A stretch of DNA of 64,000 nucleotides from Escherichia coli (GTDB lineage Bacteria; Pseudomonadota; Gammaproteobacteria; Enterobacterales; Enterobacteriaceae). Within the stretch, counting starts at the first letter, position 1; each line of letters opens with the position of its first letter. The notes beneath the pieces are model-generated. The model had not been told where the DNA came from. It worked only from the letters and a program-made list of their open reading frames with translations, and did not search any database. A program made the position numbers and the translations under genes. The stretch lies in NCBI RefSeq assembly GCF_024223415.1, contig NZ_CP100500.1. One strand, given 5' to 3'. Positions 17,231-64,000 of the stretch are shown in pieces.

Positions 17231-17248
17231 GTCAGTAAGGGCACTCTG

Positions 17249-17880
17249 ATGAGCAGAATTATCACCATCACAGTGTATACGCTGGATGAACTTTCCTGCC
17301 CGGCACGGGAAAAAGCCCGCGACGGGTACCGTCAGCATCATGCTGACAGCAACTGGTATGAAAACGTGTATGAGGACGTCAGGGAGGTCTGTGGCATTTT
17401 CGGAATTGACCTCTGCCAGCGTGTTATCCGTCTCAGCAACGGCAGGTTTATGGAAGAGCCGTGCATCTGGTTCAGCGGATTCTGCAGCCAGGGACGGAGC
17501 CTGTTTTGAAGGACGCTGGCACTGGCAGTCAGCAACAACCAGGAGAGTCCGGGAGTATGCCCCGCAGAACCGTGAGCTTCATCGTATCGCGGATGCCCTG
17601 CAGGCGGTGCAGAAACGTAACTTCTGGCAACTGCAGGCTGAAATCCACCACCGGGGACGTTACTGCCATCCGTTATCACTGTTACCCGGAACAGTCCGAC
17701 TGGTCAGGCTATGACAGCCGATGCGGAAGCCGCTGTCAGCGAAGCCCTGCGCGACCTGGCCTTCTGGCTGTACCGTCAACTGGAAAACGAGTACGACCAG
17801 ATGACCTCAGACGCCGCTGTGGATGAGGCCATTCTCATCAATGCATACATCTTCACCGAAACCGGTCAGCGCACCGGCTG
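17249..17880 (+). pseudogene. island ORF split across frames, family unknown
   Basis: Protein-like translation runs in one frame (17249-17509), shifts to a second (to 17714), then returns to the first (ATG 17711 to stop 17878-17880, ...AVSEALRDLAFWLYRQLENEYDQ...). Two frame changes would be needed for a single product. Confidence 0.45.
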
Positions 17881-17930: not shown

Positions 17931-18299
17931 GTGTCAGACACACTCTCCGGGATAACTCATCCCGACGACAATCACGACCGCCCCTGGTGGGGGCTTCCCT
18001 GCACAGTGAGGCCCTGTTTTGGCGCCCGTCTGGTGCAGGAGGGTAACCGCCTGCATTACCTTGCCGACCGCGCCGGCATCAGAGGCCGGTTCAGCGATGC
18101 GGATGCATACCATCTGGACCAGGCCTTTCCGCTGCTGATGAAACAACTGGAACTCATGCTCACCAGCGGTGAACTGAATCCCCGCCATCAGCATACCGTC
18201 ACGCTGTATGCAAAAGGGCTGACCTGCGAAGCCGACACCCTCGGCAGTTGTGGTTACGTTTATCTGGCTGTTTATCCGACGCCCGAAACGAAAAAGTAA
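17931..18299 (+). CDS. cbeA: type IV toxin-antitoxin antitoxin CbeA (YeeU family)
   Basis: 122-aa ORF near-identical to remembered CbeA/YeeU (MSDTL...NHDRPWWGLPCTV...). Confidence 0.85.
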   Translation: MSDTLSGITHPDDNHDRPWWGLPCTVRPCFGARLVQEGNRLHYLADRAGIRGRFSDADAYHLDQAFPLLMKQLELMLTSGELNPRHQHTVTLYAKGLTCEADTLGSCGYVYLAVYPTPETKK

Positions 18300-18389: not shown

Positions 18390-18800
18390 ATGAAATTATT
18401 ACCCGACACACATGTACGGGAGGCATCGTGCTGCCCGTCTCCCGTCACCATCTGGCAGACACTGCTCATCCGTCTGCTGGACCAGCACTATGGCCTCACA
18501 CTGAATGACACACCGTTCGCTGATGAACGTGTGATTGAGCAGCATATTGAGGCCGGCATTTCACTGTGCGATGCGGTGAACTTTCTCGTTGAAAAATACG
18601 CACTGGTACGTACCGACCAGCCGGGATTCAGCGCAGGAGCCCCGTCGCAGTTAATCAACAGCATCGATATTCTCCGGGCCCGCCGGGCAACAGGCCTGAT
18701 GACACGTAATAACTACAGAATGGTAAATAACATTACCCTGGGTAGCATCCGGGGGCGAAACGATGAAACTTTCCCTGACGCTGGAAGCCGACAGCGTTAA
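18390..18800 (+). CDS. cbtA: type IV toxin-antitoxin toxin CbtA (YeeV family), divergent extended C-terminus
   Basis: From the internal Met MKLLPD..., strong match to CbtA through ...MVNNITLG, then a different 18-residue tail that overlaps the next ORF by 38 nt. Confidence 0.75.
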
Positions 18801-29402: not shown

Positions 29403-29414
29403 ATTTCACTTTAA

Positions 29415-29446
29415 TGAACGAAGCAGTCAGGCGACTGCTTCGTTCA
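29415..29446. terminator. hairpin between convergent lysU and ghoT (possible bidirectional terminator)
   Basis: 14-bp stem tgaacgaagcagtc/gactgcttcgttca with a 4-nt loop; no strong T-run on either side. Confidence 0.45.
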
Positions 29447-29520
29447 TCGATCCGCAAATCCAGTTTTGAGGAGAGACGCTTCGTTTCACGATAACCAGCG
29501 GGTCCACTCAACTACAGCTC

Positions 29521-29694
29521 CTAAAAGAGAGAAAAAAGTAATGCCACAGGCAGACTCATTGGCCAGGTTATTCCGACCAGGAATGCACTAAGTAAACGAA
29601 TATGTGTTTTCTCATGTGAGATAAACCAGATAATGACAAAGGATATGTTCACACCAATCACATAAAAAATTAATATTTTAGAGAATAGTGCCAT
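29521..29694 (-). CDS. ghoT: type V toxin-antitoxin small membrane toxin GhoT
   Basis: 57-aa ORF below the ORF-track cutoff, found by manual translation: MALFSKILIFYVIGVNISFVIIWFISHEKTHIRLLSAFLVGITWPMSLPVALLFSLF. Confidence 0.85.
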   Translation of the reverse strand: MALFSKILIFYVIGVNISFVIIWFISHEKTHIRLLSAFLVGITWPMSLPVALLFSLF

Positions 29695-29721
29695 TTTTTA
29701 TGTTCTTCTTATCCTTCCTGG

Positions 29722-30018
29722 CTACTTGTAAAACTGACGGAAATAGTCATCAACTGTCATAATGTTGAGGTCAAAGTCAATATCCGGTAAGTCTAAGCAT
29801 TTAAGCCTGATTAAATCTTCGATTTCACTTGCGGCTAACGATGTCGTTATTGCGAAGGAGTTTTCATTCAATTGTCGTGGTATCCCATATTCATCAGCCA
29901 CGATAGAGGAGAAATTCATATCATACATCAATGATCTTAACCTTAAGAACACTGAGGAATAAGATGATGGATAATCAAAAGAAACAACATAAGTATTGAA
30001 CTTGTTTTTACCTTCCAT
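29722..30018 (-). CDS. ghoS: type V toxin-antitoxin antitoxin GhoS (RNase)
   Basis: Start at MEGKNKFNTYVV (98 aa), matching GhoS; directly upstream of ghoT. Confidence 0.85.
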   Translation of the reverse strand: MEGKNKFNTYVVSFDYPSSYSSVFLRLRSLMYDMNFSSIVADEYGIPRQLNENSFAITTSLAASEIEDLIRLKCLDLPDIDFDLNIMTVDDYFRQFYK

Positions 30019-46909: not shown

Positions 46910-47012
46910 TTCCCCTTAATCCAGCAAAGATAAAAGCCAACCTTAAGAACTTAAGGTTGGCTTAATTTTGCTTTGCGAGCATATGCGCACTTTGTTCGAT
47001 GGAAACACCGTG

Positions 47013-49330: not shown

Positions 49331-50422
49331 ATGCGTTTTCTGCGCCGACCAATATCGCTGCGCCAACGGCTGATATTGACCATCGGGGCCATTTTGTTGG
49401 TGTTTGAGCTGATTAGCGTCTTCTGGCTATGGCATGAAAGTACCGAGCAGATTCAGCTGTTTGAGCAGGCGCTACGCGACAATCGCAACAACGATCGCCA
49501 CATCATGCGTGAGATCCGCGAGGCGGTCGCCAGCCTGATTGTCCCCGGCGTCTTTATGGTCAGCCTGACGCTATTTATCTGCTATCAGGCGGTACGCCGC
49601 ATCACCCGCCCGCTGGCGGAGCTGCAAAAAGAGCTGGAAGCGCGCACCGCCGACAACTTAACGCCCATTGCCATTCACAGCGCCACCCTCGAAATCGAAG
49701 CGGTGGTTTCGGCGTTGAACGATCTGGTCAGTCGCCTGACCAGCACGCTGGATAACGAAAGGTTATTTACCGCTGACGTCGCGCACGAACTGCGAACGCC
49801 ACTGGCGGGGGTGCGTTTGCATCTGGAACTGCTGGCGAAAACGCATCACATTGATGTAGCACCGTTAGTGGCACGGCTTGATCAGATGATGGAGAGCGTC
49901 TCCCAGCTGCTGCAACTGGCGCGTGCCGGACAGTCATTTTCTTCCGGTAATTATCAACATGTAAAACTGCTGGAAGATGTCATTCTCCCCTCGTATGACG
50001 AACTCAGTACCATGCTCGACCAGCGACAGCAAACCCTGCTATTGCCAGAGAGCGCCGCCGACATCACCGTTCAGGGTGATGCAACCCTGCTGCGGATGTT
50101 ATTGCGAAACCTGGTAGAAAACGCCCATCGTTACAGCCCGCAAGGCAGCAACATTATGATTAAGCTGCAAGAAGATGGCGGAGCGGTCATGGCCGTTGAA
50201 GATGAAGGACCAGGTATTGATGAGAGTAAATGCGGGGAGTTGAGTAAAGCGTTTGTACGTATGGACAGCCGTTATGGCGGGATTGGTCTGGGGTTAAGTA
50301 TTGTCAGCCGCATTACACAGTTGCATCACGGGCAGTTTTTCCTGCAAAACCGGCAAGAGACTTCCGGCACGCGGGCCTGGGTACGGCTGAAGAAAGATCA
50401 GTACGTGGCAAACCAGATATAA
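49331..50422 (+). CDS. basS: sensor kinase BasS (PmrB)
   Basis: Start at ATG 49331 (MRFLRRPISL..., 363 aa) matching BasS; the ORF track begins at an upstream TTG. Confidence 0.9.
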   Translation: MRFLRRPISLRQRLILTIGAILLVFELISVFWLWHESTEQIQLFEQALRDNRNNDRHIMREIREAVASLIVPGVFMVSLTLFICYQAVRRITRPLAELQKELEARTADNLTPIAIHSATLEIEAVVSALNDLVSRLTSTLDNERLFTADVAHELRTPLAGVRLHLELLAKTHHIDVAPLVARLDQMMESVSQLLQLARAGQSFSSGNYQHVKLLEDVILPSYDELSTMLDQRQQTLLLPESAADITVQGDATLLRMLLRNLVENAHRYSPQGSNIMIKLQEDGGAVMAVEDEGPGIDESKCGELSKAFVRMDSRYGGIGLGLSIVSRITQLHHGQFFLQNRQETSGTRAWVRLKKDQYVANQI

Positions 50423-50487
50423 AGAAAGCTGCTGACCACCAGCACGCTGAACACGGTAGTTAAACTTTCATAAACACGGTTTTTCAT
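50398..50487 (-). CDS. pmrR: small membrane protein PmrR
   Basis: 29-aa ORF found manually: MKNRVYESLTTVFSVLVVSSFLYIWFATY, with a GGAGG Shine-Dalgarno upstream; overlaps the 3' end of basS on the opposite strand. Confidence 0.6.
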   Translation of the reverse strand: MKNRVYESLTTVFSVLVVSSFLYIWFATY

Positions 50488-50601
50488 TGCACTCTCCTCC
50501 GTTAATCTGGAGGAGAGTATGCGCGGCAGAGATTAAGTGAACCTTAAGAGTTCAATTGTTGGTCTGATAAGACAGCGTCACATCAGGCCATCCGTTTCAG
50601 C

Positions 50602-52104
50602 TTATTCATCAATTCGCGGATGTTGCTGCACCAGGCGGGTACGTTTCGCCTGCAAATCGGCAATCTCGTGGTCAATATCATCGATTTTCTGCTCGATATT
50701 ATCGTAATGCTCGACGAGAATTTCCTTCGCTTCCTGTATATCTGACGCCGCCGGTGTCGCACCTTTCAACGGACGATTTGCCGTCTCTTTCATGGTTACG
50801 CCGGTGATTAAACCAATCACCGCCACTACCATCAGGTAATAGGCAGGCATCATCAGATTCTGCGAGCTTTCGACCAGCCAGGCCGCCAGTGTTGGCGTCA
50901 GACCGGCAACCAGCACCGAAATATTAAATGCCGCCGCCAGCGCGCTGTATCGGATATGCGTCGGGAACATCGCTGGCAAGGTAGAAGCCATAACGCCCGT
51001 AAAGCAGTTAAGGATCACCGCCAGCATCAGTAACCCGGCAAAAATCAGGCCGATGACGTTACTGTTAATCAGAATAAACGCCGGGATCGCCAACACAAAC
51101 AGTGCAACACTACCAAGTAGCACAAACGGACGACGGCCAAAACGGTCACTCAGCAAGCCCATCACCGGCTGGACAAACAGCATACCGATCATAATGGCGA
51201 TAATAATCAGCACCCCGTGGTCTTCGGAGTAATGCAGGTTATGCGACAAATAACTCGGCATATAGGTCAGCAACATGTAGTAAGTCACGTTGGTGGCAAT
51301 TACCAGACCAATACATGTCAACAGGCTGCGCCAGTATTTAGTGGCAATCTCTTTAAACGAGACTTTCGGGCCATCCTGCAAACCTTCGCGGTCGCCCTGT
51401 TCCAGTTTATCAACATGCTGCTGGAACGCCGGAGTTTCTTCCAGCGCATGGCGCAGGTAAAGCCCGATAATCCCTAACGGCAGAGCAATAAAGAACGGAA
51501 TACGCCAGCCCCAGTCGAGGAAGTTCGCTTCGCCGACAATGGTCGAAATTAACACCACCACGCCCGCACCCAGCACAAACCCGGCAATAGAACCGAAGTC
51601 CAGCCAGCTGCCCATAAAGCCACGTTTACGGTCAGGGGAGTATTCCGCAACAAATATCGACGCCCCGGTATATTCACCGCCGACCGAGAAACCTTGTGCC
51701 ATCTTACAGATCAACAGCAGAATCGGTGCCCAAATACCAATCGTGTCGTAGGACGGTATTAAGCCAATACAGAACGTACTGATCGACATAATCACAATAG
51801 TGATAGCGAGGATCTTCTGGCGACCATATTTATCGCCCAACATACCAAAGAAGAGTCCGCCAAGCGGTCGAATCAGAAAGGGAACGGAGAACGTGGCAAG
51901 TGCAGCAACCATCTGCACGCTGGGGTCAGCCCCCGGGAAAAAAACTTTACCTAATGCGTAAGCAACAAAACCATAAACACCAAAATCAAACCATTCCATT
52001 GCATTACCCAGTGATGCTGCGGTAATGGCTTTACGCAGTTTACCGTCATCAATAATGGTGACATCACGAAGGGTAATCGGTTTTACTTTTTTCCTTTTCA
52101 GCAT
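50602..52104 (-). CDS. proP: proline/glycine betaine:H+ symporter
   Basis: Start at MLKRKKVKPITL (500 aa); MFS transporter with C-terminal coiled-coil (IDDIDHEIADLQAKRTRL). Confidence 0.95.
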   Translation of the reverse strand: MLKRKKVKPITLRDVTIIDDGKLRKAITAASLGNAMEWFDFGVYGFVAYALGKVFFPGADPSVQMVAALATFSVPFLIRPLGGLFFGMLGDKYGRQKILAITIVIMSISTFCIGLIPSYDTIGIWAPILLLICKMAQGFSVGGEYTGASIFVAEYSPDRKRGFMGSWLDFGSIAGFVLGAGVVVLISTIVGEANFLDWGWRIPFFIALPLGIIGLYLRHALEETPAFQQHVDKLEQGDREGLQDGPKVSFKEIATKYWRSLLTCIGLVIATNVTYYMLLTYMPSYLSHNLHYSEDHGVLIIIAIMIGMLFVQPVMGLLSDRFGRRPFVLLGSVALFVLAIPAFILINSNVIGLIFAGLLMLAVILNCFTGVMASTLPAMFPTHIRYSALAAAFNISVLVAGLTPTLAAWLVESSQNLMMPAYYLMVVAVIGLITGVTMKETANRPLKGATPAASDIQEAKEILVEHYDNIEQKIDDIDHEIADLQAKRTRLVQQHPRIDE

Positions 52105-56287: not shown

Positions 56288-57146
<859 letters not shown>

Positions 57147-57150
<4 letters not shown>

Positions 57151-57677
57151 GCTCTGGATGACTTTCGTTTTTTCTCCAGCTCCTGGCGCTTTTTTTCCAG
57201 GAGATGCTCCTGCATGGCTTTCAGATATGCATTTTCTGCGCGAAGATAACGCAGCTCATTCTTCATCTCTTCCGGCGTCATGTTTGCCTCGTTTTCATGG
57301 GTATCATCAGAACGGGTCATGCTTTTCTCCTTCCTGCGCCTGATAAAGGCCTCATTACCAGATTTGCGGTAGCCTTTTATCCAGTTTTTAACCATGTTGT
57401 GGCTGGGAATGTTAAACCGGGCAGCTACCCGGGGTAGAGACTCAGAATGCCCGAGAGCATAAAGAACCACGCAAAGTTTATCTTCAGGAGAATAGCTACG
57501 CTTGTGTCTGCAATCCAGTGCCTGAGGACCGTGAAGAAGAAAAAGATTAATCCAGTGTGAGAGGCTGGTGTGAGAAAGTTGAAAGAGTTTTGCCGTAGAA
57601 ATGATGCCTGCATGACCGGCCAGGTAATGATTTACAGCGGCAAGTTTTACTTCAAATGAATGTTTCATAAACTGCAC
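57147..57677 (-). CDS. IS3-family transposase OrfA (HTH, leucine-zipper-like C-terminus)
   Basis: 176-aa ORF with HTH and a K/E/L-rich C-terminal region; A-rich slippery stretches near the 3' end. Confidence 0.8.
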
Positions 57678-57719
57678 CTTCAGATGTCAGATTATGTCCA
57701 ACATTTGGGGTGCAGTTCA

Positions 57720-57850
57720 TGGTGCGTCTTATCAGGCCTACGTCAGACAGCGCAATAGCCTGATTTAGCGTGATTTTGTAGGTCGGATAAGGCGTTTACG
57801 CCGCATCCGACATCAACGCCTGATGCGACGCTTAACGCGTCTTATCAGGC
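57720..57850. repeat. REP/BIME cluster on the right of the IS, downstream of yjcO
   Basis: Several palindromic units (gcgtcttatcaggcctac; aggtcggataaggcgtttacgccgcatccgaca; gcctgatgcgacgcttaacgcgtcttatcaggcctac). Confidence 0.65.
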
Positions 57851-57855
57851 CTACC

Positions 57856-58545
57856 TTAACCGTTAGTTAATTTTTCAAACTCTTCACACCCGGTATCAAA
57901 CCCTTCCATACAGCTCAGGTTCAACCAGTGCAGCGCCTTTTGCTTGTTCTTCTCGATAAAACCTTCTTCACCGTTTAAGAACATCATTCCCGCCCAGTAC
58001 TCGGAATAACCGGTTCGGGAAATTGCAGAGCTGCGTTTGAAATACCAGGTTGCCTTGTCATCGTCGGCCTTAATGCCCACGCCGTTGGCGTAAATCAAAC
58101 CAAGCAGCATTTGGGCATCGACGGCAGAGTCGTTCTCCAGATCTTCCGAGGCGTTTTCTAACAGCGAAATCGCCTTTGGATAATCCGGTTTACCCGCTTG
58201 AGTATTTACCAGAATATGCGCCAGCGTTACTTCACCTTCTTTACTGCCCGCTTGCGCCGCTTTCTCTGCAAGAACTTTTGCTTGTGGATAGTCCAGACTG
58301 ACCGGATTGGTGATTTTGATCTACGCCAACAGCGCGCAGGCATCAGCATCACCGCTGTCGGCGGCTTTCTGTGCCCAATATTCGGCTTTGCTCAAATCGC
58401 CGGAGCTAAACCAGCTGTCGGCAAGAAAATATTGTGCGCGTCGGTCCCCGGCCTCTGCTGCCTTTAAATACTGGCTGCCAGGCTCGGAGTCGTTGGCGTG
58501 GGCAAAGAATGTCAAAAACAACATCAATGCGATAATTTTTTTCAT
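57856..58545 (-). pseudogene. yjcO: yjcO (Sel1-repeat protein) with an in-frame amber stop at 58320-58322
   Basis: N-terminal ORF 58321-58545 and C-terminal ORF 57856-58110 are in the same frame; the intervening sequence reads ...ACALLA-TAG-IKITNPVSLDY where remembered YjcO has Gln (ACALLAQIKITNPV). Confidence 0.7.
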
Positions 58546-58638
58546 TTTGATAATACGATTGGGTAGGGAGTAACCAGTATAAAGAGTTCGAATGGATAAA
58601 AAAACAGCCTCCGAAAGGAGGCTGTAGAAAGGACTGTA

Positions 58639-60786
58639 TTACGCCAGTGCCGCTTCGCGCAGGCGAGTTTTCAACTTGTTGTACTCGTCAATCACGTACT
58701 GCTCGGCGGCGCGCTGATCGGCGATCGGCTCGACGCGCACGGCGCAGTATTTGTATTCCGGCGTTTTCGTAATCGGGCTTAAGTTTTCGGTAACCAGCTC
58801 GTTACAGGCACCAATCCACCACTGGTAGGTCATATAAATCGCCCCTTTGTTCGGACGATCGCTGACCTGCGCACGGGTGATAATTTTGCCTTTACGCGAG
58901 TGCACCCAAACCAATGCCTCATCTTCAATACCCAGACGTTTGGCGTCTTCGGTATTGATTTGTGCGTAGCCAGGTTCATCCGCCAGCGCCGCCAGTGCCG
59001 CACAGTTACCGGTCATCGAACGGCAAGAGTAGTGACCAACTTCACGCACCGTTGACAGTACCATCGGGTACTCGTCGGTGAGTTTGTCGATTGGCGCTAC
59101 CCAGTCGCAGGTGAAGAACTGCGCCAGACCGTTCGGGGTATCAAACTTCTCTTTAAACAGATAAGAAGTCCCCTGATCGGCATCTGAAGTATCGCGGCAA
59201 GGCCACTGAATGAAGCCCAGTTCGCCCATTTTCTCGTAAGTCGCACCGTAGAAATCCGGGCACAGATGACGCAACTCATCCCAGATCTCCTGGGTGTTGT
59301 TGTAGTGCATCGGATAACCCATACGGGTGGCGATTTCACTGATGATTTGCCAGTCCGTTTTCAGATCCCATTTCGGTTCAACTGCTTTGAAGAAACGCTG
59401 GAAGCCACGGTCAGCCGCAGTAAACACGCCTTCATGCTCGCCCCACGACGTTGACGGTAAAATAACATCCGCCGCCGACGCGGTTTTGGTCATAAAGATG
59501 TCCTGAACGATAACCAGTTCCAGATCTTCAAAGGCTTTACGTACTGCCGACAGCTCCGCGTCAGTTTGTAGCGGATCTTCGCCCATAATGTACGCGGCAC
59601 GCACTTCGCCATGCGCTGCGCGGTGCGGCAGCTCGCTGATGCGATAACCGGTATGAGCAGGCAGGCTTTCCACGCCCCAGGCTTTGGCGAATTTCTCGCG
59701 GTTAGCCGGATCTTTCACGTACTGGTATCCCGGATACGTATCCGGCAGCGCGCCCATATCGCAGGCACCCTGCACGTTGTTCTGACCACGAACCGGGTTT
59801 ACACCCGCATGCGGCTTACCGAGGTTACCGGTCAGCATCGCGAGGCTGGTCAGAGAACGCACGGTTTCCACGCCCTGGTAGAACTGGGTTACACCCATGC
59901 CCCACAGGATGGCGGCGCTTTTCGCCTGGGCATACATCCGTGCCGCCTGACGAATCTCACTGGCGCTGACGCCGGTGATATCTTCAACCGACTCCGGCGT
60001 GTAGCCTTCAACGATTTTACGATACTCTTCAAAGCCTTCTGTACGTGAAGCGACGAACGCTTTGTCGTACAGATTTTCTTCAATAATGACATGGCCCATC
60101 GCATTCAACAGCGCGATGTTCGAGCCGTTTTTCAGTGCAATGTGCATGTCAGCAATGCGCGCGGTTTCAATTTTGCGCGGATCGCAGACGATAATTTTCG
60201 CCCCGTTACGTTTAGCGTTAATTACGTGATTCGCCACGATTGGGTGGGAATCCGCCGGGTTGTACCCGAAAACGAACACTAAATCGGTATTATCAATTTC
60301 GTTAATAGCATTGCTCATTGCGCCATTACCGACCGATTGGTGCAGACCTGCAACCGATGGGCCGTGTCAGACACGAGCGCAGCAGTCAACGTTATTGGTA
60401 CCAATAACGGCGCGCGCAAATTTTTGCATTACATAGTTGGTTTCGTTACCCGTACCACGCGAGGAGCCGGTCGTCTGGATGGCATCCGGACCGTACTTCT
60501 CTTTGATGGCGCTCAGGCGCTCGGCAACGTAATTCAGTGCCTCATCCCAGGAAACAGGTTCGAGTTTGCCGCCACGCTGGCGACGGATCATGGGGGTTTT
60601 CAGGCGCGGGGTCAGGATCTGGGTATCGTTAATGAAATCCCAGCCATAATAACCCTTCAGACACAGGGTACCCTGGTTGGTTTTCCCCTGCGCTGCCTCC
60701 GCCCGGACGATTTTGCCGTTATCGACGACCAGGTTGATTTTGCAACCTGATGCGCAATAGGGGCAAACCGTGACGACTTTTTTCAT
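58639..60786 (-). CDS. fdhF: formate dehydrogenase H, selenocysteine-containing (UGA-Sec at 60367-60369)
   Basis: ORFs 60367-60786 and 58639-60318 are in the same frame separated only by TGA; the junction reads ...VDCCARV-U-HGPSVAGLHQSVGNG as in FdhF Sec140. Total 715 codons. Confidence 0.9.
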
Positions 60787-60983
60787 CGGTCTCGCTCCAG
60801 TTAATCAAATCACGCATACGCGCTCTCGACTACAGTATGCATCTTTTATGCCACATTTTATTTGGGGTCATTCCCTGATATTACGGGCACTATTTATTCA
60901 AAACTCTGACGAAAAACAGGCTGTCGTCAGTTTTGACGTGACGAAACGAAATACCGCGTGACGGCCATCACGCGGCAGACATT

Positions 60984-62450
60984 TTATTTTTTCTCGACGA
61001 CGGGAGCCGCCTGATACCCGCCGCCCAGCGATTTCATCAACTGAATGCTTTGGATCACCCGGCGGCTGTCCAGCATCAGTAATGACATCTCTTCGGCAAG
61101 CACCGGCAACCGGGCTTCGGTAGCCTGTAAGCGGCTGGTTAAGCCGCGCTGATAGGCGGCCTCGGCAGCGCGCTGGGTGAAGCGCGTTGCTTCCACGCGT
61201 TCAGCCTGCATCTCTCGCTCGTCGTTGAGCGTTTGCAGACGCGTGCCGTTGACGGCAACGTCACGCACCGCGTTCAGTACTGACTGGTTGTAACGTTCAA
61301 TCATCATGTTGCTGGCGGCGCGCGTGCCTTCGAGATTGGCATTCAACCGTCCACCGTCAAACAGCGGCAATTTCAGACCCGGGATAAAGTTGAACTGGCG
61401 ACTGGTTTTTTTGAATAAGGTATCCAGGTGGATGGCATCAAGGCCGAAAAACGCTTTGATATCAAAGCTCGGGTAGAACAGCGCCCGCGCGGAATCCACC
61501 TGATCTAATGACGCCTGAACATACCAGCGCATGGCTTGCAGATCCGGGCGTCTGGCGAGCAACTCATAAGAGAGCGTCGCCGGAATGCCGGTCTGTACTT
61601 GCGGTAATGCCACCGCTTTGATCTCCGGCATATCGCTGGCTCCCGCGCCAATCAATGCACGCAGGGATTCTCGCGTTTCGGTGATTTGCCCTTTAACGGC
61701 AGCAATTTGTTTATCGACCGCCAGAATCTGTGCCCGCGCGCCGTGGAAAGGCACTTGCGCTTCCAGACCGTGCGCCACTTTACTTTGGTGCGCTTTCACC
61801 GCGTAATCAATCACATCGCGAGTTTGTTCTAACAGATCGAGCATCTGATAGCTGGCCTGCATACTGTAATAAAGCTGCGCTACGCCCGTGGTCAGCGATA
61901 GCTCTACTGCTGCGGTTTCTGCCAGCGCGGCATTATGCGCGCCAATGGCGGCGGCAACCGCTGAGCGATGCACACCCCACAAATCAAGATCCAGTCCGGC
62001 AAACAAACCTACTGTGGCTTCCGTATAGTACGGCCCGTCCATACCCAGTGCTGGCGCATCCATCGCATAAGGGCTTAAAAAGCCGTTCGCCGAGACGCGT
62101 TGGCGGTTGAGCATCCCTAACGCTGCGACCTGTAATTGTGAACCGGCATCTAACAAATCGGCCTGGGACTGCGCTTTTTCTTCCCGCAGTTTCGCTTCGG
62201 CGAGGGTGTGTGAACCACTTAGCGTCCGTTGGATCAGCGCATCCAGCTGCGGGTCATTGAGTTGTTTCCACCACTGCGCCTGCGGCCAGCCGGAGCTGGC
62301 AAGATGAATATCATCGGCCAGTTTGATTTGTTCCGGTTTGAGCTGTTGATTAGGCGCAGAATCCTTGCGTACCAGGGCACAGCCGGAAATCAGCGTCGTG
62401 CTGCCGAGAATGCTGCACAACAGCAGACGTGAAAGTTGACGATTGATCAT
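60984..62450 (-). CDS. mdtP: outer-membrane efflux factor MdtP (YjcP)
   Basis: 488-aa OMF-family lipoprotein (lipobox LISGC) matching MdtP; overlaps the mdtO stop by 4 nt. Confidence 0.9.
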   Translation of the reverse strand: MINRQLSRLLLCSILGSTTLISGCALVRKDSAPNQQLKPEQIKLADDIHLASSGWPQAQWWKQLNDPQLDALIQRTLSGSHTLAEAKLREEKAQSQADLLDAGSQLQVAALGMLNRQRVSANGFLSPYAMDAPALGMDGPYYTEATVGLFAGLDLDLWGVHRSAVAAAIGAHNAALAETAAVELSLTTGVAQLYYSMQASYQMLDLLEQTRDVIDYAVKAHQSKVAHGLEAQVPFHGARAQILAVDKQIAAVKGQITETRESLRALIGAGASDMPEIKAVALPQVQTGIPATLSYELLARRPDLQAMRWYVQASLDQVDSARALFYPSFDIKAFFGLDAIHLDTLFKKTSRQFNFIPGLKLPLFDGGRLNANLEGTRAASNMMIERYNQSVLNAVRDVAVNGTRLQTLNDEREMQAERVEATRFTQRAAEAAYQRGLTSRLQATEARLPVLAEEMSLLMLDSRRVIQSIQLMKSLGGGYQAAPVVEKK

Positions 62451-64000
62451 TGCGTGGCTCCTTGTGCCTGTTCCGTGGCGGGCGTTAATGCCGGGGCTGT
62501 CCAGTCTGGCAAGCGGGCGAAAAGCTGGCAGACGTGTTGCTCCTGTTTTAATAAGGTGGGCAGGATGGCCTGCGAGGCGGGTGTCTCTTCAAGCGTTATT
62601 TGAGGAGAACGGCTGAGTGCGGTTGCCAGACCGGCAGCGTATTTTTCCAGAGCGTCGGCAAACTGACCTGCTCTGTCCGGCTGTAGTGCGTTATCCAGCG
62701 CCTGCGCCGAGTTCCAGGTGGCATCCCAGGCGTGAAGAAGATCGCGGCCCTGACGAATAACCGTTTGCGAACGTTCAATCAGTAAGGCGCGTTCTTCGCT
62801 GTCCAGTTGACGCTCCAGCGCCACGCGTTGGCACATCTCTTCACAGGCATTAAACGCCGCATGCAGACCTATACGAATTTGCAGATAAGTGCGCAGAGCC
62901 GTGACTTCCTGCTGGCGTGGGATCCGCATTACTTTACTTAGCATACCCAGCGCACCGGCCAGTTTTTGCGGCAGCGTGCGCGCTTCACTTTCAGGCCAGA
63001 CAAAGGTGTAAATCACCGCAGACACCACGGTACCAATGATGATACCCAGGGCGCGATCGCGAATTTCCACCAGGTCGTACACCGGACCAAAAACGTTTTC
63101 GAGCGTGGCGAGCGCGAAGGTGACCACCATCTGTGTGCCGATATAAGAAGAGCGTTCAGAGCTGGTGGCAATCCATGCGCCCAACAGGAAAATCGGTGCC
63201 AGCACAAACAGCAATTCGACAATATTGTCCAGCCAGGGCATGACCAGTAGCGTGAATAACAGCGCCAGAATCGCGCCGCAAAAGGCCCCGCCAAAACGCA
63301 GCACCATCTTCTGGTACGATGAACCGACATTCGGATTAGCGACGATCACGCAGGTCAGCATACAGGTGTGAATGCCTTCCCAGTCCACGCCGCTGTAGAA
63401 GGTGTAACAGATCAAACAGGCGAGCAGCGTTTTTACCGCGTAGCGCATATAGTCTGGATTGGTAAAAGCATCGGCGGCCATTGATGGCGGTTTGGCTGCG
63501 GGCGTTGGCGGCGTATTCGGGTCCATCTGACCCAGTTGTAACAACGTCTGGCAGATATTCTCCAGGTTACATTCCCGTGCCGCCATCGCTTCACTTTCAC
63601 TGATCCGCCAGTCGCTTTGCCAGCACTGACCTTCGGTAATGGCATGCTGCAGCTTGTTGATTTCTGAAGCTAATTTTTGTCGGAATTCAATAATTGCCTG
63701 AGAATCAGCAAAAGAGGTGGGATCGTAGCGATTCAGTGTCGAGTAAATGTAGGTTACCGTTGCCACGCAGCTTTGCCACCATGCACTCTGGGTTCGCCAG
63801 TTGGCATCGTCCGCGAGGCAAAAGACATTGAGTTTTTGCAGCGCCAGCGCCTCTCTTTCAATCCGCGTTTCGGGTAGCGGTGCGAGGCTGTCCGTCAGGT
63901 GGCTAATGGCATCATCAAGCCGATCATTAAGCACCTGATGCATTTGCGTAATGGCACGACTGGGAAACCACAGTACGCCGATTAACGTCATTAATAACGT
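62447..64000 (-). CDS. mdtO: efflux system membrane protein MdtO (YjcQ), 5' end beyond the window
   Basis: Frame open to the window edge; matches the C-terminal region of MdtO; conserved mdtO-mdtP order. Confidence 0.85.
   Translation of the reverse strand, partial: TLLMTLIGVLWFPSRAITQMHQVLNDRLDDAISHLTDSLAPLPETRIEREALALQKLNVFCLADDANWRTQSAWWQSCVATVTYIYSTLNRYDPTSFADSQAIIEFRQKLASEINKLQHAITEGQCWQSDWRISESEAMAARECNLENICQTLLQLGQMDPNTPPTPAAKPPSMAADAFTNPDYMRYAVKTLLACLICYTFYSGVDWEGIHTCMLTCVIVANPNVGSSYQKMVLRFGGAFCGAILALLFTLLVMPWLDNIVELLFVLAPIFLLGAWIATSSERSSYIGTQMVVTFALATLENVFGPVYDLVEIRDRALGIIIGTVVSAVIYTFVWPESEARTLPQKLAGALGMLSKVMRIPRQQEVTALRTYLQIRIGLHAAFNACEEMCQRVALERQLDSEERALLIERSQTVIRQGRDLLHAWDATWNSAQALDNALQPDRAGQFADALEKYAAGLATALSRSPQITLEETPASQAILPTLLKQEQHVCQLFARLPDWTAPALTPATEQAQGATQ

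Follow-up and report, generated by a model that had tools for sequence, protein, structure and literature searches.

The closest described relatives of the small genes considered here are the type V toxin-antitoxin system GhoST and the LpxT modulator PmrR. GhoS has been characterised as an endoribonuclease that cleaves the ghoT mRNA, GhoT as a peptide that lyses or depolarises the membrane, and MqsR as a GCU-specific RNase that spares ghoT (PMC4344625). PmrR has been reported to bind and inhibit LpxT, and in Escherichia coli PmrR function is lost when the PmrA box is deleted, and the resulting polymyxin B phenotype depends on lpxT (PMC8129183). The E. coli peptide has also been detected by Ribo-RET and found in membrane fractions, its complementation requires the start codon, and deletion of pmrR causes a growth defect in low Mg2+ that does not depend on lpxT; a reporter with the sequence immediately ahead of pmrR gave no response to low Mg2+ (PMC11429745). 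On the opposite side of the same locus, Xu et al. (2021) observed that pmrB conferred no colistin resistance when followed by 86 bp of downstream DNA (+86), partial resistance at +103 and full resistance at +126 (PMC8004244).

In the window analysed here, a 64,000-nt stretch of E. coli DNA (contig NZ_CP100500.1), an initial annotation had recovered both genes by translation, placing ghoT downstream of ghoS and pmrR antisense to the 3' end of basS (pmrB), and had remarked that these known genes would be missed by a 60-aa cutoff. The ORF listing and the K-12 identities bear this out: ATG-initiated ORFs of 57 aa (29521..29694) and 29 aa (50398..50487), both on the minus strand and with stop codons included, occupy these sites and, being shorter than 60 aa, are lost at such a cutoff. 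As 25 ORFs of at least 20 aa overlap the 1.3-kb stretch around ghoT, an ORF of this size carries little weight on its own, and the case therefore rests on identity to known genes, family models and cross-genus conservation. Both coding sequences are 100% identical, in DNA and protein, to b4559 (ghoT) and b4703 (pmrR) of E. coli K-12 MG1655, so that the peptide mismatch named beforehand as grounds for rejecting the assignment was not seen. RefSeq annotates ghoT, ghoS and pmrR at the corresponding positions of strain S51, which is ~99.95% identical to window positions 20029-57741, and among 5426 complete E. coli genomes the ghoST region was found in 5333 and the pmrR region in 5408. Judged from sequence, the two ORFs are almost certainly the chromosomal E. 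coli genes ghoT and pmrR. Neither gene is new, and the finding, though correct, is an ordinary one: two genes with annotation and functional characterisation drop out at an ORF cutoff of 60 aa, a limit familiar for cutoffs of this kind. The identities themselves carry little importance, and modest practical value lies in the side observations.

The ghoST locus closely follows its K-12 counterpart. GhoT (PF10753, Toxin_GhoT_OrtT; 90.4 bits against a cut-off of 22.1, E-value 8.9e-26) is preceded on the same strand by the 98-aa antitoxin endoribonuclease gene ghoS (29722..30018, counted from the annotated ATG; PF11080, 138.8 bits, 6.1e-41), whose product is identical to K-12 b4128. The presence of ghoS directly upstream and in the same orientation sets the toxin apart as GhoT and not the orphan homologue OrtT. 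The two genes are separated by a 27-nt spacer (29695..29721, minus strand) with a purine-rich AGGAAGGA/AAGAAG stretch, and their shared orientation and short spacing fit a single operon. Gene order, spacer length, the flanking lysU-type and yjdJ genes and the asymmetry in GCU triplets described below are all as in K-12 (b4559/b4128); the locus departs from K-12 at three synonymous positions of ghoS and by a few SNPs in the flanks.

The features of the locus agree with the published mechanism, from which the activities below are taken. GhoT is strongly hydrophobic (GRAVY 1.50), with hydrophobic windows at residues 1-27 and 34-54 and the residues HEKTHIR between them, as would suit a small two-helix peptide that damages the inner membrane. 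Cleavage of the ghoT mRNA by GhoS would normally keep the toxin from being made. Under stress, MqsR would remove the ghoS part of the transcript, and ghoT would escape because it lacks a GCU site: no GCU triplet occurs in ghoT (2.15 expected from base composition) and three occur in ghoS, in agreement with the reported specificity of MqsR. Between ghoT and the convergent lysU-type lysyl-tRNA synthetase gene lies a perfect 15-bp hairpin (29414..29447), which folds on both strands (z -3.5 and -4.9); the terminator scan made no call there, since the hairpin is not followed by a T run. It is probably a 3'-end structure common to the two genes.

The pmrR coding sequence likewise reproduces the K-12 gene. 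Transcribed from a PmrA-dependent promoter between proP and basS, the 29-residue inner-membrane peptide inhibits, on the activity known from the literature, the lipid A phosphotransferase LpxT, and thereby favours phosphoethanolamine addition by EptA and polymyxin resistance. The peptide aligns over residues 1-29 of 29 to the NCBIfam equivalog NF033224 (74.2 bits against a cut-off of 30) and shows one hydrophobic segment, in keeping with a single-helix membrane peptide that modulates LpxT; no match was obtained in the copy of Pfam-A searched, and a PmrR family, PF28106, is nonetheless on record for orthologues. Since basS ends at 50422 on the plus strand, the antisense 3' overlap of the two genes is 25 nt (50398..50422). 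As had been stated in the initial annotation, a GGAGG Shine-Dalgarno sequence precedes the gene, here located at 50500..50496 on the minus strand, 8 nt before the ATG. Coding sequence, peptide, site between proP and basS, PmrA box, leader hairpin and Shine-Dalgarno sequence are the same as in K-12 (b4703), and the locus differs by one change in the spacer between the box and the -10 element and one in the hairpin loop. A REP-like palindrome after the proP stop (50555-50601, minus strand) differs from that of K-12 by one G-to-A substitution and 3 inserted nucleotides, which weaken its stem. Across 50250-50700, no more than 26 of the 5409 E. coli records that match reach 99% identity, and most fall between 95 and 99%; the 3' ends of basS and proP are thus relatively polymorphic, though the pmrR coding sequence is identical to that of K-12.

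For a wider comparison, pmrR loci of Salmonella, E. fergusonii, E. albertii, about 15 Citrobacter species and Intestinirhabdus were gathered through BasS orthologues and one DNA-pattern scan of species-representative genomes; the scan returned no representative of E. coli or Salmonella enterica, and absence from Klebsiella or Enterobacter is not to be read from it. A BasS homologue at 68% identity was set aside, being non-syntenic and devoid of pmrR, and a Saccharibacteria match of the pattern scan was dismissed as a chance hit with no ORF. The gene lies between proP and pmrB/basS, convergent with the latter, in Salmonella, Citrobacter, E. fergusonii and Intestinirhabdus as it does here, and its overlap with basS amounts to 25 nt in Escherichia and 4-7 nt in Salmonella and Citrobacter and is absent in Intestinirhabdus. 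In 22 sequences from four genera the ORF retains its length of 29 codons, with 14, 5 and 24 variable columns at the first, second and third codon positions, respectively. The Salmonella peptide reads MKTRIYESLTTVFSLLIVSSFLYVWVSSY, and its leader has the same architecture as that found here.

Upstream of the gene, a PmrA (BasR) box, CTTAAGGTTCACTTAAT, was located at 50532..50548 on the minus strand by motif scan and conservation. The pattern YTTAAK-N5-YTTAAK occurs twice in the 64 kb (0.21 matches expected), at the pmrR promoter and at that of eptA-basRS (46950..46966, plus strand) only, the latter serving as a positive control for the motif. The box begins 61 nt before the ATG here and 60-61 nt before it throughout the 22 sequences compared, all of which share one leader order: the box, a variable 10-nt spacer, a (C/T)A-N-ACT hexamer, a stem, a loop of variable sequence, the Shine-Dalgarno sequence and the ATG. 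The hexamer stands 10 nt after the box in every species, the sequence of the intervening spacer is not conserved, and the local copy, CATACT (50516..50521, minus strand), is accordingly put forward from its conservation as a candidate -10 element. A sigma-70 promoter scan made no call upstream of pmrR; this miss is expected where an activator box stands in for the -35 element, as PmrA boxes have been described to do (PMC10570014). Given such a replacement, and with the sole conserved -10-like hexamer extending into the beginning of the stem's 5' arm, the PmrA-dependent transcript is expected to start at about 50508-50511, that is, inside the hairpin.

The stem in question is a perfect 10-bp hairpin, ACUCUCCUCC-N8-GGAGGAGAGU (50491..50518, minus strand), whose 3' arm holds the Shine-Dalgarno sequence and whose 5' arm comprises the end of the candidate -10 element and the discriminator. 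Its predicted free energy is -19.4 kcal/mol (z -6.1), and an RNA beginning at 50508 is predicted to be unstructured. In an alignment of 21 distinct sequences from four genera, 99.5% of stem cells are paired, as against 51-69% when the partner is slid; the 3' arm, GGAGG included, is invariant, and variation is confined to the 5' arm, where five cells change from C to U, giving G.U pairs in the pmrR- or proP-sense RNA and what would be A.C mismatches in the basS sense. Two-sided compensatory covariation was found nowhere across the 21 aligned sequences, so that support for the hairpin comes from conservation and from this asymmetry between the strands. The stem is followed by GCAAUGAAAAAC in the proP sense and by AUGCGCGG in the basS sense; lacking a U tract, it is not a canonical intrinsic terminator, and it was not called by the terminator scan.

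A bearing on its function is provided by published 3'-end mapping in K-12. In the portion of TRS Supplementary Data 2 that covers pmrR, a terminus of proP-sense RNA is placed at 4332112-4332120, with 4332117 dominant, which, when carried onto the window via the pmrR start, corresponds to 50483..50491 on the minus strand, at the pmrR start codon and 0-8 nt past the stem; according to the authors' summary of their SEnd-seq data, transcription of the upstream gene terminates at the start of pmrR (PMC10687069). On this entry, the full stem would be present in proP transcripts, which would end just beyond it, and, as no U tract is present, their 3' ends could come from trimming instead of termination. 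The small hairpin within pmrR (50444..50430) had been considered as the site of an intragenic terminator and was dropped, the same entry putting the 3' end at the start codon after the Shine-Dalgarno hairpin. A literature search returned no paper linking pmrR with a leader hairpin.

These observations can be drawn together in a tentative reading, to which slightly less than an even chance is given, in which the hairpin is a built-in insulator common to two transcription units, the downstream region of Xu et al. (2021) is pmrR with its promoter, and the enterobacterial RNA family STnc630, considered below, is the pmrR mRNA. RNA arriving from proP would form the stem and end just after it, with the Shine-Dalgarno sequence masked, and PmrR would not be translated from it. 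RNA initiated at the PmrA-dependent promoter between proP and basS would begin within the stem and lack its 5' arm, leaving the Shine-Dalgarno sequence free, and would escape insulation because of this start site. Such an arrangement, if true, would be a compact means of shielding a stress-specific small protein from the transcription of a highly expressed upstream neighbour.

Two other roles for the hairpin have to be weighed against insulation. It might belong to the pmrR mRNA itself, with transcription starting upstream of the 5' arm, and act as a translational repressor or 5' stabiliser that needs to be opened. The complete enclosure of the Shine-Dalgarno sequence in so stable a stem, the retention of pairing by the C-to-U changes only in the pmrR-sense RNA, an Rfam model of the region that begins upstream of the box and the indication that PmrR levels need tight control (PMC11429745) would all suit such an element; the position of the sole conserved -10-like hexamer, which overlaps the 5' arm and is preceded by an unconserved spacer, and the replacement of the -35 element by the box instead place the start inside the stem, and the mapped 3' end, in the K-12 entry cited above, indicates that it is RNA started further upstream that carries the hairpin. 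A leader element of the pmrR mRNA is accordingly regarded as unlikely. Less probable again is a role on the opposite strand, as a 3'-end structure of the eptA-basRS mRNA. The hairpin does lie 69-96 nt after the basS stop, and in the experiments of Xu et al. pmrB mRNA was ~315-fold lower from an insert ending at +86, inside the loop, than from one ending at +126 (PMC8004244); the half-life of that mRNA was unchanged, however (PMC8004244), the five C-to-U variants are mismatches in basS-sense RNA, and no basS-sense 3' terminus stands beside the pmrR entry in the portion of the TRS table covering it (PMC10687069). The cut points also admit a different interpretation: counted from the basS stop, +86, +103 and +126 fall at window positions 50508, 50525 and 50548, so that the first insert contains pmrR without a promoter, the second adds the -10 element only and the third the -10 element with the complete PmrA box. 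The pmrR promoter thereby offers a simple reading of the puzzle of why the colistin resistance that BL21 pmrB confers needs 103-126 bp of downstream DNA.

The same stretch bears a competing label in Rfam. RF02052, 'STnc630', matches at full length (50391..50556, minus strand; 178.1 bits against a gathering score of 55) and is typed as a non-coding 'Gene; sRNA', which would favour a non-coding small RNA in which the 29-codon ORF is incidental. The match, however, spans the PmrA box, the hairpin and the whole pmrR coding sequence, the main helix of the family is the Shine-Dalgarno hairpin, and the PmrA box, a DNA site, forms part of the consensus itself, along with the Shine-Dalgarno sequence, the AUG and the UGA, so that the family amounts to the pmrR gene. 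A purely non-coding identity is also at odds with the constant ORF length across 22 sequences and four genera and its excess of variable third positions, with the protein models held by NCBIfam and Pfam, and with the detection of the E. coli protein in membranes and the failure of a start-codon mutant to complement (PMC11429745), and is considered highly improbable. The region is not a non-coding RNA, as it holds a conserved, translated 29-codon ORF (PMC11429745); it comprises the promoter, leader and coding sequence of pmrR, and may act as a dual-function RNA. STnc630 thus seems to represent the gene or mRNA of pmrR, a mismatch between databases in which an "sRNA" family covers a small-protein gene; the literature search returned no paper mentioning STnc630. 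This mis-typing and the arrangement of hairpin, promoter and 3' end at pmrR are the only points here that are perhaps worth a small experiment.

A further claim of the initial annotation, that the window contains two toxin-antitoxin loci of different types, holds at the level of families, with GhoST of type V and CbtA/CbeA of type IV, and is weakened by the state of the cbtA toxin gene. The 122-aa antitoxin gene of the cbeA/yeeU family (17931..18299, plus strand; PF06154, 7.8e-55; annotated as cbeA in strain E41) is intact. The cbtA-family gene that follows (18390..18800, plus strand; 136 aa) retains a complete Pfam domain (PF06755, 1.6e-59 over 1-112 of 112); alignment to the S51 and E41 alleles shows that it has lost one nucleotide at codon 119 of 125 in comparison with the S51 homologue. 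The frameshift replaces the last residues by an 18-residue tail and abolishes the ATGA overlap with the downstream DUF5983 gene, and PGAP treats the identical allele of strain E41 as a pseudogene, labelled 'frameshifted'. Compared with the CbtA/CbeA (YeeV/YeeU) pairs of CP4-type islands, the pair shares full-domain matches to PF06755 and PF06154 and the same neighbours (DUF932, antirestriction, RadC, DUF987, DUF5983 and DUF4942); it differs in the frameshift of its toxin gene, the alternative tail and the absence of the ATGA overlap. On this reading of the sequence, the integrity of the type IV toxin CbtA is uncertain.

The pair is carried on a CP4-type genomic island that fills positions 1-20028, adjoins cadC, contains IS fragments and encodes a GTPase, DUF932, antirestriction, RadC, DUF987, CbeA/CbtA and DUF4942 proteins. 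S51 has a different island at this site, matching in pieces at 88-96% identity, and an island at another location in strain E41 is 99.2% identical to the present one. In that near-identical island, the stretch upstream of cbeA holds a frameshifted pseudogene that PGAP names 'antitoxin of toxin-antitoxin stability system' and that corresponds to window positions ~17245-17880 (plus strand); the matching frames of the window gave no Pfam match.

At the other end of the window (56319-57741 and 57600-64000), the sequence runs past an IS1397 copy into yjcO-fdhF-mdtPO, a segment that in S51 and other genomes lies ~32 kb away on the opposite strand, where it adjoins a second IS1397. Such a placement suggests that an inversion bounded by IS1397 took place in the present strain, or that a recombination or assembly joint is present. 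Just past the IS1397 copy, an Rfam match to naRNA4, a nucleoid-associated ncRNA of REP325 type, was recorded at 57781-57851 (plus strand; 75 bits). Within the same segment, a SECIS_2 element (Rfam, 87 bits; 60320-60374, minus strand) marks the junction of the minus-strand ORFs 58639-60318 and 60367-60786, which together constitute the selenoprotein gene fdhF, split by the ORF track at its in-frame TGA.
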